Of a stretch of 32,000 nucleotides of DNA, positions 9,529 to 14,575 are shown piece after piece. The first letter of the stretch is position 1. Each line of letters starts with the position of its first letter. The stretch covers positions 240,001 through 272,000 of the forward strand of contig JACQJH010000002.1 in the NCBI GenBank assembly GCA_016205145.1, read 5' to 3'. Source of the DNA: Candidatus Iainarchaeum sp. (GTDB taxonomy: Archaea; Iainarchaeota; Iainarchaeia; Iainarchaeales; JACQJH01). Both the position numbers and the translations under genes were made by a program. The notes below the pieces were generated by a model, which saw only the letters and a list, made by a program, of their open reading frames with translations, made no database searches and had not been told where the DNA came from.

Positions 9529-10791
9529 TTAATCTACCGCTTTCGAAAGAACGCCTTGAGTACGTGCCTGACAAGAAAGCGCGCCATCTGGGTTGGCACA
9601 ATTAAAGGTGGCACCGGAATAAACCGCGCCATTGGAATATAATGCCCCAAGCTTCCAGCCGCCCAGCGGCACTGACACAGTGTATTGATAGAATTTCTGG
9701 CCGCCAAACGTGAAAATCTTTGCCCTGCCGCTCGCATCAGTCCTCGCAAATTTGTCGGTCTCCACAATAGGCGTGTCATCCGAATTGCGAATCCTCAAAA
9801 CATCAACCGTTACACTGCCGCCTGGCGCAGGCACATAAACGTAAGCAGGGTAAATCGGTTGACCGCTAGTCTGCTGCAAGGCCGGCGCGGCGGGCGCTGG
9901 CGTGGAACCGCCGGACCCCGGTGCATTGCCTGCCGGCGGAGCAGAAGCCCCGGCATTCTGGGCTTTGGCAATTGCTGCCCCTGCCTGAGTCTTAAGCGCT
10001 TCAGAAATCGCAGAACACGGATTTTGCCCCGAAATTGTCGAACCCTGAGCCAAAAGGAGGTCATTCCAGCGTATCCCGCCTTTTGCCTGCGAAGCGTTCA
10101 GCACAATGGTTATTTCGCCGTTCAAATTAGAAACATATTTGAGAGTAGCCGGATTGTTTTTCAGATTGCTTATATATCCGTGCACGCCACCCCTTGATTC
10201 CGCCCACGTTGCAATGGTGAAGCTTACGGGTTGCGTTCCAATCGAAGTCCACCGCGCATCAGCACCCGCTTCCTGAACTTCAATATTCGCGGTAACTGGC
10301 GCATTTGTGTTGAACGTCCAATCACGATAAGAAGGCATGACCACTTGCCGGGCAATTATCTTATAGAATCCGGATTGGCCTTTCCCGTCTTCGGAAGGTG
10401 AAAAAGGGCAAATGTTTGCAAAGCCGTTTGCGACAAAGGCTTGGTCCCCCGTGGGCCTTGCACCATAACGATAACCCAAAAAACCCAAAGCGCCGACTAA
10501 ACCGGATCCAACAAGTCTGCCGATAACAGCCTTTGCGGTCAGTCCGGCTGCCCCTTTAGCAAGACCGCTTGCCAGCCAGCCGCCGGGAATAAAAACACCA
10601 ACAAGGACAGATACGCCAGTAACACCCCACGCAACGTACCTTTCACCCTGATTTATCGTCCAGCCCGTCACGTTTGCAGTGTGCGCGTTATCAGGGTAGG
10701 TCACGCCTTTTATCGTGGCAAACGCGTAGGAAGAACTCAACAGGATGAAAGCGGAAAAAAGGACCAAAAAGTTTGTGAAGCGCATTTTCAT
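9529..10791 (-). CDS. Secreted/membrane protein L1 (420 aa), L family
   Basis: Signal peptide ending YAFA-T, then a VTGW motif and a Gly-rich hydrophobic region (GWLASGLAKGAAGLTAKAVIGRLVGSGLVGALGFLGY). The domain is homologous to L2. Linker ASAPPAGNAPGSGGSTPAPAAP. C-terminal module PAYVYVPAP...KFYQYT...ATFNCANPDGALSC. Confidence 0.85.
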   Translation of the reverse strand: MKMRFTNFLVLFSAFILLSSSYAFATIKGVTYPDNAHTANVTGWTINQGERYVAWGVTGVSVLVGVFIPGGWLASGLAKGAAGLTAKAVIGRLVGSGLVGALGFLGYRYGARPTGDQAFVANGFANICPFSPSEDGKGQSGFYKIIARQVVMPSYRDWTFNTNAPVTANIEVQEAGADARWTSIGTQPVSFTIATWAESRGGVHGYISNLKNNPATLKYVSNLNGEITIVLNASQAKGGIRWNDLLLAQGSTISGQNPCSAISEALKTQAGAAIAKAQNAGASAPPAGNAPGSGGSTPAPAAPALQQTSGQPIYPAYVYVPAPGGSVTVDVLRIRNSDDTPIVETDKFARTDASGRAKIFTFGGQKFYQYTVSVPLGGWKLGALYSNGAVYSGATFNCANPDGALSCQARTQGVLSKAVD

Positions 10792-10815
10792 AATAATTCA
10801 CGTTGCATAGTTTTT

Positions 10816-11430
10816 TTATTCTTGATTGGCGTCAAAGTTAACTTCCGGGTTTTCGCAGTCGGCTTTGAGGCCCGCATTGAAAGTTTCGGATTCCGAAATC
10901 GTTTCCTGCGTCGGCGCAACAAGCCCGTCGCCCTCGGCCAAAATCTTCACTGAAGAAAGAACATTCGGATAATTCTTTTCAAGCGATTTTATTTTCGATT
11001 CAAAAACGGTTTTTGACTGCGCCAGCTTTTTTGAAACATCAACAAAGCTTTGCAACGAATCCATGCCGGGGCACAGGTCGGGCCAGTCCGACATTCCTGT
11101 AAAAAGCGCGGCGCGCCCGTTCGACGAATTGATGAAAACCGCGTAATTTTCTGAATAGTCCACCAAAGATGAAAGTGCGGAGCCCATTTCCTTCCATCCC
11201 CCGCTTTGCCCGGCCGAAAATTCTTCCAAATCAGCTTTCAATGCCAGGCGCTTTGAAGATTCAAGCACCATGGTTTTGTCGGCAAGGTAATCGGATTCCG
11301 CGTTTACGCCGTATTTGGCGTAAACCGATTTGAGTTCAGTGAAAGCGCCTGCAGGACCGGAAAAAAACAGCACGTATCCCGCGGCCAAAACCGCCAAGAC
11401 AACGATTGCAACCAAAAATTTGTTCGCCAT
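10816..11430 (-). CDS. Small signal-anchored protein S1 (about 204 aa), S family
   Basis: The track ORF is 10816..11472 and starts at a TTG. The in-frame ATG at 11430 (MANKFLVAIVVLAVLAAGYVLFF) gives a normal signal anchor and leaves room for the TATA-like box at 11474-11481. Conserved blocks LKADLEEFSAGQSGGW, LCPGMDSLQSFVDVSKKLAQSKTVFESKIKSLEKNYPNV and LKADCENPE. Confidence 0.8.
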   Translation of the reverse strand: MANKFLVAIVVLAVLAAGYVLFFSGPAGAFTELKSVYAKYGVNAESDYLADKTMVLESSKRLALKADLEEFSAGQSGGWKEMGSALSSLVDYSENYAVFINSSNGRAALFTGMSDWPDLCPGMDSLQSFVDVSKKLAQSKTVFESKIKSLEKNYPNVLSSVKILAEGDGLVAPTQETISESETFNAGLKADCENPEVNFDANQE

Positions 11431-11473
11431 TTTCCCGCCGTTTTGCTTTTCGTTAATTACATTGGTTTGCAAG

Positions 11474-11481
11474 TATAAAAA
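11474..11481 (-). promoter_or_regulatory. Candidate archaeal TATA box (minus strand tATTTTTATAc) upstream of S1
   Basis: The reverse complement of 11471-11486 is gaatATTTTTATActt. It lies 44 nt upstream of the ATG at 11430 and just downstream of the collagen-like gene stop (11493). Confidence 0.4.
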
Positions 11482-11492
11482 TATTCGTTTTT

Positions 11493-12368
11493 TCAGGGCA
11501 CGCGCCTTTGCATTCTAATCGGTTTTTTTTTGCCCCACAAGCCTTTCACTATTGCCTGCCTTCCGCGCACAGCCGAAACCCTTGGCGTCAAAACGGTCCT
11601 GCCGGCGGTGCGCACGGCGCCAGTAATTGCCCTTCCGGTTCCCCTTGCAAGCCTTCTTCCAAAACCCGGACCGGATGGCGCGGCTCTGACTGTTCCAGGC
11701 AAATCAACGTATCTTCCCCGGATTCCATTCATCCGCGCGTCAACTCCTGCAAGCGCCCGCCTGAAAGCTGACATGTGCTTTGGAGCGTAAGACCTTGGGC
11801 CTCTTTGTGCGATTCGTTCGCGTTGTGCGCGCAACGCATTGTAGGCTCTTGCATCCCTTGGACTCATTGTCAGGCCATGCTGCGTGCCAACGTAATGCGA
11901 GCCGGAAAACTGCCTTGCCGGATTCTCGGCCGCCTTGCCTTGCTCGCCGCGCTCGCCCTGCAGGCCTTGGGGACCGGGTTCGCCTTGCACGCCCTGCAAG
12001 CCCTGCAAACCTTGTTCACCACGCTCACCCTGCAGGCCAGGCAAGCCGCCACCGCCTCCACCGCCAGCAGGCGCAGGACCTGGAGCAGGACCACCACCAG
12101 CAGGAGGGCTTGACGCCGGAGCAGGCGGCATAACGGGTGGCACTGGTGCCGGAGCAGGAGGAACAGGAGTCGGAGTTGGCGCAGGCGCTGGCGTGCGCGC
12201 GGCCCGTGCAGCCAAGGCAGCTTGCCTTTTCTCACGCCAAACAGGCCTTCGCCCCTTAAGCCCAAAAACCGGGCCGACCGGCGTCTTGGACAAAGCCCAG
12301 TCAACCGGCGCGGTTACAACCTTGGCGCCAAGCTTAGCAGTTTTCCACACCGCACCAAGAATGCCCAA
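11493..12368 (-). CDS. Collagen-like repeat protein (291 aa) with a Pro-rich spacer and a basic Arg-rich C-terminal half
   Basis: ORF with a TTG start at 12368, preceded by GGTGG 6 nt upstream on the minus strand. It has an amphipathic N-terminus, a P/A/T/V-rich stretch and a G7 run. Thirteen uninterrupted G-X-Y triplets follow (GLPGLQGERGEQGLQGLQGVQGEPGPQGLQGERGEQGKA). It is co-directional with its neighbours. Confidence 0.75.
   Translation of the reverse strand: MGILGAVWKTAKLGAKVVTAPVDWALSKTPVGPVFGLKGRRPVWREKRQAALAARAARTPAPAPTPTPVPPAPAPVPPVMPPAPASSPPAGGGPAPGPAPAGGGGGGGLPGLQGERGEQGLQGLQGVQGEPGPQGLQGERGEQGKAAENPARQFSGSHYVGTQHGLTMSPRDARAYNALRAQRERIAQRGPRSYAPKHMSAFRRALAGVDARMNGIRGRYVDLPGTVRAAPSGPGFGRRLARGTGRAITGAVRTAGRTVLTPRVSAVRGRQAIVKGLWGKKKPIRMQRRVP
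11931..12047 (-). repeat. Collagen-like (G-X-Y)x13 coding repeat
   Basis: Residues 108-146 of the 291 aa ORF. The first codons were checked base by base (12045-47 ggc G, 12042-44 ttg L, 12039-41 cct P). The DNA shows recurring ctgcaggcc/ctgcaagcc units. Confidence 0.85.
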
Positions 12369-12404
12369 AAAAAACCACCAAACCTATTTTTGCTACACGG
12401 GCCT

Positions 12405-13580
12405 CTAGACGCCCCCACTATCTTGTTCGCGTTCCAGTTGAGCCTTTAATGTATCCCTGCGTTGCCGCAAATCTGCAAGCGCGGCTTTAGCAGCATCTAC
12501 GTTCGCAGGCAAAACAGACAACTGCTCATCCAAGCGCTGCTTAGTGCCCGGAATTGCCTCCAAAGCCTGTTGAGCCAGCTTATACCGGCGTGCACCCTCT
12601 TGCTTCCACTGTCCCGCCAAACGCACCCGTTCCTCCGGACTTGAAACCGCCCACTCCCACCGCTGCCTCAACCAACGCCCATCAGCAAACGCCAGTGCAG
12701 CCACTTGAGCACGATGCGCATCCGCCCCTCTCTGCAACAAGCCATCCGATTCACGCTTAACCCTTGCAAGAGTAGCCTCCAAATCCTGCAAAGCCCTATC
12801 AGCACCCGCAACAGCCCTGTCGGCTTCCCTTAACGGCGCCAATCGGTCGCGCTCAGCCCGGCCGGCCCGCACAGACGCAGTGGCACTTGCAACACCGCTT
12901 CTCGCGGCAGTCAGCAACTTGCGCGCAGGACCCTGTTCGCCTGCAGGCCTTTGCCTTCTGCTCTGGTCTTCCAATAATGGCGGTGGTGCAGGAGATTCGA
13001 TTCCAGCCCGCGCACTATGCTCTAGCAAGCCAAGCTGGCCGCCCAAAGCCACGACTCGTCGGCGCAATTGCAATAGTTGGTGTAACGATTCCGCGGGAAG
13101 CTCAGTCCGGGAAACATCCCGAAGCTGGCGTTCTAAATCTATAAGCGTAGTAATAGCCATTTGTAACTCAGAGCCTATTTGCTGGCGTTCCTCATTCCGG
13201 CGCTCCGATTCAAGCATCCGCCGGCCGCTTGAAGTAAGCCGCATAACAGCCACTTGACTGGAAGTGCGATTTGGAATGGGTTCCATTAGTGTCGGAGCAA
13301 TTTGCTCCCAAGCACTCATCACTTCCCAGGCACCGGCGCGTAGCTCGCGCACAGCAGCCAGCCTAGCATGCGCTTCAGCGGCACCAGACTCAGCGACATG
13401 CTCGACATGCGCTTCAGGCTCTCCCAAATCCTCGCCCCGAAGATTGGCGCGAGCCCACGCCGCTGCAACATCCGGATCCCAATGTTCAGTGAAACGCGGG
13501 TCGCTCACATGCTGCCTGCGCCTTCTTCCGCCTTGGCCCTTGCCAGGACCCCCGCCTTCACGCGGCGGTTCACTAGCCAT
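12405..13580 (-). CDS. Arg/Ala-rich coiled-coil protein (391 aa), paralog A
   Basis: No signal peptide. The C-terminal ~155 aa align clearly with the 288 aa neighbour (RDRLAPLREADRAVAGADRALQDLEATLARVK...GRWLRQRWEWAVSSPEERVRLAGQW vs RRRLAPLRAANRAVSGAEKTLQGLEATLKRAR...GHWLRQRWERLVSNPEEKARLAEQW). No family recognised. Confidence 0.8.
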   Translation of the reverse strand: MASEPPREGGGPGKGQGGRRRRQHVSDPRFTEHWDPDVAAAWARANLRGEDLGEPEAHVEHVAESGAAEAHARLAAVRELRAGAWEVMSAWEQIAPTLMEPIPNRTSSQVAVMRLTSSGRRMLESERRNEERQQIGSELQMAITTLIDLERQLRDVSRTELPAESLHQLLQLRRRVVALGGQLGLLEHSARAGIESPAPPPLLEDQSRRQRPAGEQGPARKLLTAARSGVASATASVRAGRAERDRLAPLREADRAVAGADRALQDLEATLARVKRESDGLLQRGADAHRAQVAALAFADGRWLRQRWEWAVSSPEERVRLAGQWKQEGARRYKLAQQALEAIPGTKQRLDEQLSVLPANVDAAKAALADLRQRRDTLKAQLEREQDSGGV

Positions 13581-13606
13581 CCCGGTTCACCAGCCGGATT
13601 AATTCA

Positions 13607-13630
13607 CTAGTCATCTTACTAGTCATCTTA
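13607..13630. repeat. Perfect tandem duplication of the 12-mer ctagtcatctta (x2) in the leader of paralog A
   Basis: 13607-13618 equals 13619-13630. A degenerate third copy (cactagccatcc, 13571-13582) overlaps the ATG of the 391 aa gene. Confidence 0.9.
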
Positions 13631-13653
13631 TCACATGATAAATGGTTTAATCT

Positions 13654-13668
13654 CCTATTTAATTCTTG
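13654..13668 (-). promoter_or_regulatory. 15 bp exact repeat cctatttaattcttg (minus strand caagaATTAAATAgg), TATA-like, upstream of paralog A
   Basis: Identical 15-mer at 14627-14641. On the minus strand it contains ATTAAATA preceded by a purine-rich, BRE-like aagaa. It lies 74-88 nt upstream of the ATG at 13580. Confidence 0.45.
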
Positions 13669-13708
13669 GCGTGAAAGCCAAAATTGGCAAGCCAAAACGA
13701 AAACGATT

Positions 13709-14575
13709 TCAGTTTCGTTCGCTGTCTTTGACTCCAAGCTCGGCGCGCAAAGTCTCTCTCTCGGACTGCGATTGTTCTAGCTTGGCCTGTGCCTCGGCTA
13801 TTTTCGAGGGCAGTTCATCCAATTGTGTTTCCAATCGCGCCCTAAGCCGCGGAATTTCAGCCAATTCCCGTTCGGCTAAAGCGTGGAGCCTTTCACCTTC
13901 GCGCATCCATTGCTCCGCCAAACGCGCCTTTTCCTCCGGATTTGAAACCAACCGTTCCCATCGCTGCCTGAGCCAGTGCCCATTCTTCCATGCCCGTGCC
14001 TTAACCAAGGCACGGTTCGCATTAGCCTCCCGTTGCGATAAACCATCAAATTCAAGCCGGGCTCTTTTGAGAGTAGCCTCCAAACCCTGCAAAGTTTTTT
14101 CAGCGCCTGAAACGGCCCTGTTGGCTGCCCTCAGCGGCGCCAATCGCCTGCGCTCAGCCAGCCTGCCTCTCACAAAAGTGCCAACACCTCGAATGCCGCG
14201 GCCTGTGCCGGCCAGGAGATCGCGGACGCCACGCTTGGGTGGCAATAAATTTAATCCCCTTGCCGTTCCATTGCGCGGGCGGCCCCTGCCTTGGCCCCTG
14301 CCAGGCGTCACACGCATGCCGGGTTCCTGATGCACACTAGAAAAATCCCCTGGCCCGGGAAAAACGGGTGGAATGTAAGGCGGTTGCCTTCTCCTTTCGC
14401 CCGGTAATGGTGCGGGTTCAAACCGGATAGGCGCCGTTGCGGGGTCCACGGCGCGCTGTCTGGGGCGCTGCCGGAAACCTGTTGCCGGACGGAAATCTGA
14501 TTCGCTTATCACGCCGTGGTCAACAAGCACTTGACCCAAAGTCTTCCTAGGCCTTTGGGGAGGAGTTTCAGCCAA
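13709..14575 (-). CDS. Arg-rich coiled-coil protein (288 aa), paralog B
   Basis: Pro/Arg/Gly-rich, probably disordered N-terminal half. The C-terminal coiled-coil domain is homologous to the 391 aa protein. No signal peptide. Confidence 0.8.
   Translation of the reverse strand: MAETPPQRPRKTLGQVLVDHGVISESDFRPATGFRQRPRQRAVDPATAPIRFEPAPLPGERRRQPPYIPPVFPGPGDFSSVHQEPGMRVTPGRGQGRGRPRNGTARGLNLLPPKRGVRDLLAGTGRGIRGVGTFVRGRLAERRRLAPLRAANRAVSGAEKTLQGLEATLKRARLEFDGLSQREANANRALVKARAWKNGHWLRQRWERLVSNPEEKARLAEQWMREGERLHALAERELAEIPRLRARLETQLDELPSKIAEAQAKLEQSQSERETLRAELGVKDSERN

Follow-up and report, generated by a model that had tools for sequence, protein, structure and literature searches.

A collagen-like, strongly basic protein without an export signal, encoded at the head of an envelope-protein locus in Candidatus Iainarchaeum

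The gene and its orthologue

The window analysed here is a stretch of 32,000 nucleotides from the genome of Candidatus Iainarchaeum sp., which measures 1.25 Mb and is 98% complete. Positions 11493-12368 of its minus strand hold a gene for a strongly basic protein of 291 amino acids (aa) with a short collagen-like repeat, that is, an unbroken run of Gly-X-Y (GXY) triplets. It is a genuine protein-coding gene of lineage-restricted distribution within the Iainarchaeota (DPANN). The adjacent TrpRS is 65% identical to the TrpRS of a Candidatus Iainarchaeum metagenome-assembled genome from groundwater. The gene and the parts of its product are listed below, with evidence from the list of open reading frames (ORFs), from the orthologue, from non-synonymous (pN) and synonymous (pS) differences, and from an AlphaFold2 (AF2) model with its predicted local distance difference test (pLDDT) values.

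11493..12368, minus strand: collagen-like basic protein gene, complete; 291 aa, TTG start at 12366-12368, stop at 11493-11495 (ORF list, orthologue P0055/P0057, pN/pS)
12195..12368, minus strand: N-terminal module, residues 1-58; amphipathic Trp/Lys helix, D-W-x-L-S-K-T-P, basic Ala-rich helix
12048..12194, minus strand: Pro/Ala/Thr/Val-rich spacer ending in Gly7, residues 59-107 (sequence)
11931..12047, minus strand: 13 uninterrupted Gly-X-Y triplets, residues 108-146 (sequence, orthologue comparison)
11709..11876, minus strand: predicted antiparallel helical hairpin, residues 165-220, with helices 170-193 and 196-218 (AF2 pLDDT 73-88)
11496..11708, minus strand: Arg-rich tail, residues 221-291, probably disordered; net charge +16 (pLDDT <50)

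What decides the case for coding is an orthologue, P0055 (251 aa). An exhaustive HMMER search brought it up when the last 145 residues of the window protein served as the query. It is encoded on the metagenome contig Ga0066639_10010564 (L036), and P0055 and P0057 are the full-length entries. The window protein and its orthologue align at the N-terminus, across the repeat and over the C-terminal domain with its hairpin, and they are 55% identical. Compared by the Nei-Gojobori method, the two genes give a pN of 0.317 and a pS of 0.688 (omega ~0.22), within the range of the neighbouring genes against the same contig (0.14-0.32). As pN lies well under pS, the frame is under purifying selection. 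The earlier note had left room for a different coding strand or frame; both the orthologue and the selection acting on the gene uphold the annotated one. Additionally, the chance of an open frame of 291 codons at 60% GC is about 8e-5 by our own arithmetic.

The collagen-like repeat

The 13 unbroken triplets reported earlier at residues 108-146 are present in the ORF translation exactly as described. The run grows to 15 triplets (11931-12065) if two preceding GGG triplets are counted, and the repeat of the orthologue has 15. No other GXY run of at least eight triplets occurs in any frame of the genome, and the only other one of at least six is a 7-triplet poly-Gly stretch. A tandem-repeat search (TRF) detected a weak 9-bp periodicity of ~3 copies at the repeat, which is therefore not a recent slippage or tandem expansion. 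With its 13 triplets the run falls within the operational definition of a collagen-like domain given in PMC11923368, namely six or more contiguous GXY triplets.

The way in which the repeat has diverged is informative. Identity between the window protein and its orthologue is 13/13 at Gly, 3/13 at X and 8/13 at Y, and synonymous sites of the segment are saturated (pS 0.90). In the two proteins together, every Glu (9/9) stands in X and every Gln (16/16) and Arg (4/4) in Y. Gln alone takes eight of the 13 Y positions of the window repeat, which has three Pro and no Thr. Invariant Gly and position-specific preferences at X and Y are the signs of triple-helix constraint, and both are found here. 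On this comparison, the evolutionary pattern of the repeat is what a triple helix predicts. In host-guest peptides studied by Persikov and colleagues (2000), Glu is reportedly favoured in X and Arg or Gln in Y. A profile built from the two sequences matches solved collagen chains over the repeat with an E-value of 7e-22, and the matches in the PDB sequence search are to collagens only, via the repeat. Moreover, P0055 carries a precomputed label of the Pfam Collagen family, PF01391. According to PMC11923368, Gln-Gly-X triplets are over-represented in archaeal collagen-like domains.

The same pattern bears on a different view of the stretch, in which a Gly/Gln/Pro-rich segment serves as a flexible or polyproline-II-like linker and keeps its three-residue period by chance. 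On this view the GXY run would form no triple helix, and the product would be an Arg-rich monomer of the cytoplasm, mostly disordered and perhaps binding nucleic acid. This is hard to square with a repeat that keeps all of its Gly and its register despite substitutions at 10 of its 13 X positions, and with the strict separation of Glu, Gln and Arg between X and Y, which is typical of triple helices. Furthermore, the true linker next door (residues 59-107) shows what such a segment looks like: it has indels and a pN of 0.44.

An ORF of 596 aa with a transglutaminase-core domain (81.8 bits) lies elsewhere in the same genome (G000:C2:594314-594580, L042). The idea that archaeal transglutaminases might modify the Gln of collagen-like repeats is raised in PMC11923368. 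The ORF is a lead only, as the domain is common in prokaryotes.

Parts outside the repeat

The whole protein has 34 Arg, a net charge of +34 and an isoelectric point (pI) of 12. Its general layout had been outlined correctly from the letters of the DNA: a Gly7 run and a Pro/Ala/Thr/Val spacer (~45 aa, within residues 59-107) precede the repeat, an Arg-rich basic tail follows it in a C-terminal half that is itself Arg-rich, the N-terminus is amphipathic (hydrophobic moment ~0.4 over residues 1-25), and no classical signal peptide is present. By the Kyte-Doolittle scale, no segment is hydrophobic enough for a signal or an anchor, as the maximum 19-residue mean is 0.88 compared with 1.95-3.15 in the neighbouring exported S/L proteins.

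The N-terminal module (residues 1-58) has changed less at non-synonymous sites (pN 0.21) than any other region and contains many columns that are invariant in the orthologue; AF2 places helices at residues 4-14 and 43-57 with low confidence. The spacer is poorly conserved in both length and sequence and, given its indels and high pN, behaves as a linker. The hairpin starts 20 residues past the repeat and is the sole confident part of an AF2 model with a mean pLDDT of 49; the orthologue has many of its residues unchanged. According to PMC11923368, the folding of collagen begins at a nucleus near the C-terminal end, and in Scl proteins it is the domains beside the repeat that nucleate trimers (PMC8968730), for which reason the hairpin is read as a candidate trimerisation or nucleation domain. 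The last ~28 residues of the tail are absent from the orthologue. A Gly-Thr-Gly-Arg-x-Ile-x-Gly stretch is common to the tail (11496-11660) and to cc2, a gene described below, at the point where its conserved domain begins (14100-14230, also minus strand), and is absent from the cc2 paralogue cc1; as a sign of real kinship it is marginal (p ~0.02) and was set aside.

Start codon and public annotation

The TTG start named in the earlier note has proved well founded. The codon at 12366-12368 is the first start of its frame, with five codons upstream of it and then an in-frame stop, and the orthologue begins at the equivalent Met-Gly-Ile. A GGTGG site stands at a suitable distance, and a second in-frame TTG lies further downstream:

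12375..12379, minus strand: GGTGG, Shine-Dalgarno-like, at -11 to -7, i.e. 7-11 nt 5' of the TTG start
12006..12008, minus strand: in-frame TTG at codon 121, judged a false start; used by the public 171-aa call P0001

GGTG-type motifs are enriched ~11-fold at start-site distance in the genome of the window. GGTG occurs at -16 to -4 in 14.6% of 533 long ORFs (1.3% in the control window), and GGTGG in 4.1% (0.4% in the control window).

The public 171-aa gene call is truncated. P0001 begins in the middle of the repeat, where a GGTGA just 5' of its TTG is made by the codons for Gly-Glu-Arg-Gly-Glu, and this mimic of a ribosome-binding site probably misled the gene caller. The 120 residues upstream of codon 121 are conserved in the orthologue and have been lost from the public annotation. 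A second gene caller gives 285 aa from codon 7 (P0058). The lesson for annotation is that Gly-Glu-Arg codons can imitate a ribosome-binding site and so shorten a public call.

Neighbourhood of the gene

Ten genes here run in one direction, with the collagen-like gene in third place; their order is cc2, cc1, collagen-like gene, three S/L cassettes and a gene for an exported protein of 889 aa. Its closest neighbours are as follows.

12405..13580, minus strand: cc1, upstream neighbour, 36 nt from the collagen-like gene; 391 aa, Arg/Glu-rich, signal-less
13709..14575, minus strand: cc2, paralogue of cc1 (ORF list, cc1 comparison)
10816..11472, minus strand: S1, downstream neighbour and first S/L surface-protein gene; listed as 218 aa with TTG at 11472

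The products of cc1 and cc2 are 50% identical over 164 C-terminal residues; cc1 belongs to no Pfam or PHROG family, and a search of 196 genomes of the order revealed no clear relative of it. The true start of S1 is probably the ATG at ~11430 (Met-Ala-Asn-Lys), 14 codons on, where its L036 orthologue begins. The gap between the collagen-like gene and S1 is ~20 nt as listed, or ~60 nt with the start at 11430. On contig L036, the orthologue of the collagen-like gene is followed by that of S1 (71% identity) within the series S1-L1-S2-L2-S3-L3-large exported protein, which is the order seen in the window.

The proteins of the cluster fall into two kinds. Those of cc2, cc1 and the collagen-like gene have no hydrophobic segment, no Cys and little Asn, Ser or Thr, and they are Arg-rich. 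Every S and L protein and the large protein have an N-terminal hydrophobic segment and Cys pairs, and the S proteins are acidic (pI 4.4-4.7). Counts of N-glycosylation sequons were uninformative on localisation.

This contrast has a direct bearing on the proposal that the collagen-like protein is itself exported, either alongside the S/L proteins or by some non-classical path, as a surface fibre or adhesin whose basic tail binds a host or mineral surface. Its gene is directly upstream of the exported S/L cassettes and syntenic with them, the acidic S proteins could dock a basic partner, and most collagen-like ORFs of the phylum have N-terminal anchors and Cys-rich heads. Moreover, the known bacterial collagen-like proteins are surface adhesins, and Lcl binds sulphated glycans (PMC11162425). 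Nevertheless, an adhesin is a rather improbable reading. The protein is devoid of a signal peptide, of an anchor and of any lipobox-like or Tat-like hydrophobic region; it lacks Cys and is poor in Asn, Ser and Thr, in which it differs from every exported protein of the cluster; and it groups by composition with the signal-less cc1 and cc2.

As the earlier note had pointed out, the gene sits at the boundary of a GC-rich segment, with a GC fraction of 0.606 at 11501-12500 and 0.479 at 10501-11500. The step spans 11.5-14.5 kb and lies in the first and second codon positions. At third positions, the GC fraction (GC3) is 0.53 for the collagen-like gene and 0.52-0.55 for the GC-rich genes, which is within the range of their neighbours. 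With GC3 normal, the GC-richness comes from Gly, Ala, Pro and Arg codons and not from a foreign mutational bias, and foreign origin was rejected as the cause of the step. The stretch of cc2, cc1 and the collagen-like gene (11493-14575) has poor codon-model scores, and what sets it apart is the amino-acid make-up of its products (Arg, Ala, Gly, Pro, Glu), not a nucleotide bias.

Searches for relatives

A whole-protein search of 5.8 billion proteins gave matches driven by GXY only, which covered 10-28% of the query, and the truncated public call of the protein itself. Word-indexed searches with residues 147-291 and 1-62 returned only the window protein or its orthologue. A 398-aa protein, P0056, emerged from the exhaustive HMMER search with an E-value of 6.6e-7 and was rejected as an unrelated repeat protein. 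The flanking parts have no relative in Pfam, PHROGs or NCBIfam, in a set of 60 genomes of the order, in 196-215 genomes of the order and phylum, in 185k species genomes or in IMG/VR, and none besides the orthologue in protein collections; the ESM Atlas gave no usable match for the protein. By these searches, the flanks are orphan.

Collagen-like segments are common in phage fibres. A viral or mobile-element fibre or virion protein, left behind by an integrated archaeal virus, was thus weighed as a further explanation; cytoplasmic assembly would explain the missing signal peptide, and the Arg-rich arms would bind the viral genome. PHROG tail-fibre families are indeed matched with E-values down to 7.5e-8, the protein is polybasic and lacks a signal peptide, and the three genes at 11493-14575 combine weak host-like codon scores with unusual composition. 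Viral genes are also mentioned among the carriers of collagen-like sequences (PMC8968730). These matches, however, are confined to residues ~89-167, i.e. the repeat. For the non-collagen halves, which the earlier note had proposed to compare with viral databases, IMG/VR contains no relatives, and the phage collection yielded a single match that is marginal and compositional (a Streptomyces phage tape-measure gene, E 8e-3). Nor are there viral hallmark genes nearby: nine neighbours have no PHROG match, no integrase, capsid or terminase is recognisable among the ORFs of the window, and the window contains no tRNA gene. Since GC3 is host-like and the same chromosomal order is found in a second species, a viral origin is very improbable.

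Collagen-like proteins elsewhere in archaea

The remark in the earlier note that collagen-like repeats are unusual in archaeal chromosomes was overstated. PF01391 matches 11 of 215 Iainarchaeota genomes, nine of them above the cut-off, and archaeal collagen-like domains are included in a published census (PMC11923368). No paper that joins collagen-like proteins and DPANN was found in the searchable literature. Most of the other Iainarchaeota collagen-like ORFs are small and signal-anchored with Cys-rich C-terminal heads. They share with the window protein the phylum, short runs of 10-25 triplets and a Gln-rich Y position; none shares the N-terminal module or the hairpin by sequence. A different kind of frame is found in one genome of the phylum (G084:C9:38339-44977, L002/L013), with at least 2579 aa composed almost wholly of collagen repeats, 27 Pfam Collagen matches and runs of >100 triplets.

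The nearest in overall design is a protein of 302 aa from genome G017 (contig C27). It has a basic N-terminal end, no hydrophobic segment, 25 GXY triplets and an Arg-rich tail, and its AF2 model has a confident (pLDDT 72-96) helical hairpin immediately behind the repeat, of the same type as that of the window protein. The neighbourhood is similar as well, as the gene lies upstream of genes for large exported proteins and an S/L pair. Homology was considered and rejected as unproven, the BLAST E-value of 5e-5 and the hhalign probability of 96% being driven by the repeat and Arg-rich composition. At the same locus (L014 8802-10529), the 302-aa protein is preceded by a basic paralogue of 268 aa that has no collagen run. 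The two paralogues share a domain of 70-95 residues with 46-49% identity, and both lie upstream of the large exported proteins and the S/L pair.

Basic proteins with repeated Trp-x-x-Lys/Gly-Ala-Lys motifs adjoin S/L cassettes in two further genomes, G015 (L032 8319-9200) and G013 (L028 7714-9102). They were rejected as relatives of the N-terminal module, to which their likeness is weak (shuffle p 0.008-0.09, uncorrected for multiple tests).

Comparison with known systems

Scl1 and Scl2 of Streptococcus and Lcl of Legionella resemble the window protein in their uninterrupted GXY repeats without hydroxyproline, rich in charged residues and Gln. A further likeness is the candidate nucleation domain outside the collagen-like run, a part that falls to the V domain in Scl (PMC8968730). 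Lcl binds polyanions (PMC11162425), as the tails of the window protein may do. The differences are considerable. Against the NCBIfam models of these adhesins (NF046116, NF038330), the window protein scores 26.6 bits for Lcl, where the cut-off is 500, and 20.3 bits for SclA, where it is 400, in both cases over the repeat only. Signal peptide, LPXTG motif and anchor are all lacking, the repeat is much shorter (13 triplets), the flanks are orphan, and the candidate nucleation domain is C-terminal, not N-terminal. In general, surface fibres of bacteria, viruses and some archaea are known to be built in part from collagen-like segments.

Other kinds of collagen-like protein are more distant. The C-terminal part of the window protein is predicted to be helical or disordered and has no Pfam match, and its repeat has no Thr. 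In BclA-type exosporium glycoproteins, by contrast, the repeat is glycosylated and rich in Thr, and the C-terminal head is a beta-sandwich of the C1q/TNF-like type. Collagen-like tail fibres of phages (PHROG 5073, 6320, 366 and others) share a GXY segment and assembly without a signal peptide; the window protein matches them in the repeat only, shows neither a fibre tip nor a chaperone nor any other domain of phage kind, and is encoded among genes that are not of phage type. Furthermore, the collectins, the macrophage scavenger receptor A/MARCO, C1q and ColQ of vertebrates have a short collagen rod beside an alpha-helical oligomerisation segment and bind polyanions through basic clusters. This is an analogy of design principle, with no kinship of sequence and no demonstrated kinship of fold, and the vertebrate proteins are secreted or membrane-bound, hydroxylated and glycosylated, unlike the window protein.

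Proposed role and alternatives

The reading that we favour, with a probability of roughly 0.55, is that the protein forms a homotrimeric polybasic rod which serves the adjoining envelope locus as scaffold or linker. The hairpin (residues 165-220), C-terminal to the repeat, would gather three chains and act as the nucleus from which the 13-15 GXY triplets zip up into a triple helix of ~11-13 nm, at the collagen rise of 0.286 nm per residue. Glu in X and Arg or Gln in Y would stabilise this helix without hydroxyproline, and the Pro/Ala spacer would serve as an extended linker. One end of the rod would then present three conserved amphipathic Trp/Lys modules, candidate membrane-interface binders, and the other end three Arg-rich tails, candidate binders of a polyanion, which might be nucleic acid, an acidic lipid or one of the acidic S proteins. 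A role in the envelope locus is proposed because the gene lies between cc1 and the S/L cassettes and the protein resembles those of cc1 and cc2 in make-up.

Several points weigh against this reading. The scan with PF01391 that the earlier note had proposed gave 15.2 bits (E 0.019), under the gathering score of 27.2, which is explained by the shortness of the run; in the whole-genome scan with this family, no match reached E <=0.001. A helix of 13 triplets with three Pro is short, Pro-poor and of uncertain stability. AF2, which had two sequences as input, gives pLDDT <50 over the repeat and most of the protein. The trimerising role of the hairpin is drawn from a monomer model, and a fold search with that model returned generic helical hairpins only (Z <=7.1). 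Contig L036 starts inside the orthologue gene, so that the synteny comparison covers the downstream (S/L) side. A codon-usage model trained on 540 long ORFs of the genome favours the annotated frame weakly, and it gives a similarly weak frame signal for cc1 and cc2; composition alone therefore does not settle the coding status, and it is the orthologue that decides. The family is known from two species, and its conservation statistics are those of one pairwise comparison in which synonymous change is saturated. Finally, the likeness of the G017 protein in the non-collagen parts is not significant after shuffling (p 0.03-0.35), so that this protein is taken as an analogue of uncertain homology and may be convergent.

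Some of these points, namely the PF01391 score, the few Pro and the low AF2 confidence over the repeat, speak for the linker view. It also gains from the pI of 12 and the 34 Arg in a protein without an export signal, and from the finding that no prolyl-4-hydroxylase-type domain (PF13640) turned up in the 98%-complete genome. Bacterial collagen-like proteins, though, fold without hydroxyproline (PMC8968730). Together with the constraint on the repeat described above, this leaves a disordered monomer as a possible account but a doubtful one.

As to where the proposed trimer resides, the cytoplasmic side of the membrane appears somewhat more likely than export, in view of the missing signal and the cc1/cc2-like composition. 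A more specific proposal, which we hold to be unlikely, is an intracellular, membrane-proximal collagen-type trimer that joins with cc1 and cc2 in tying the nucleoid or ribosomes to the inner face of the membrane. The Arg tails would hold the nucleoid or ribosomes and the amphipathic Trp/Lys heads the membrane, beneath the S/L cassettes, with the cc1 and cc2 proteins as Arg-rich coiled-coil partners. The look-alike in G017 suggests that an intracellular design recurs in the Iainarchaeota. To our knowledge, collagen-like elements are known only from surfaces, spores and virions, and an intracellular scaffold, if true, would be the first to work within a cell.

Significance

The protein is a signal-less, polybasic, archaeal and orphan-flanked version of a well-known protein kind, found so far in two species. 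It is unusual in having no export signal or anchor, in being extremely basic, and in its conserved position at the head of an uncharacterised envelope-protein locus. As the family comprises two species and its function is only proposed, the general interest of the finding is modest. If the rod model is true, the protein would be a minimal, natural triple helix free of hydroxyproline, with 13 triplets and a compact nucleation domain of its own. The cell-surface and host-contact biology of DPANN archaea is almost unknown, and such a rod would offer a small, expressible handle on the envelope locus, for example in pull-downs and localisation.

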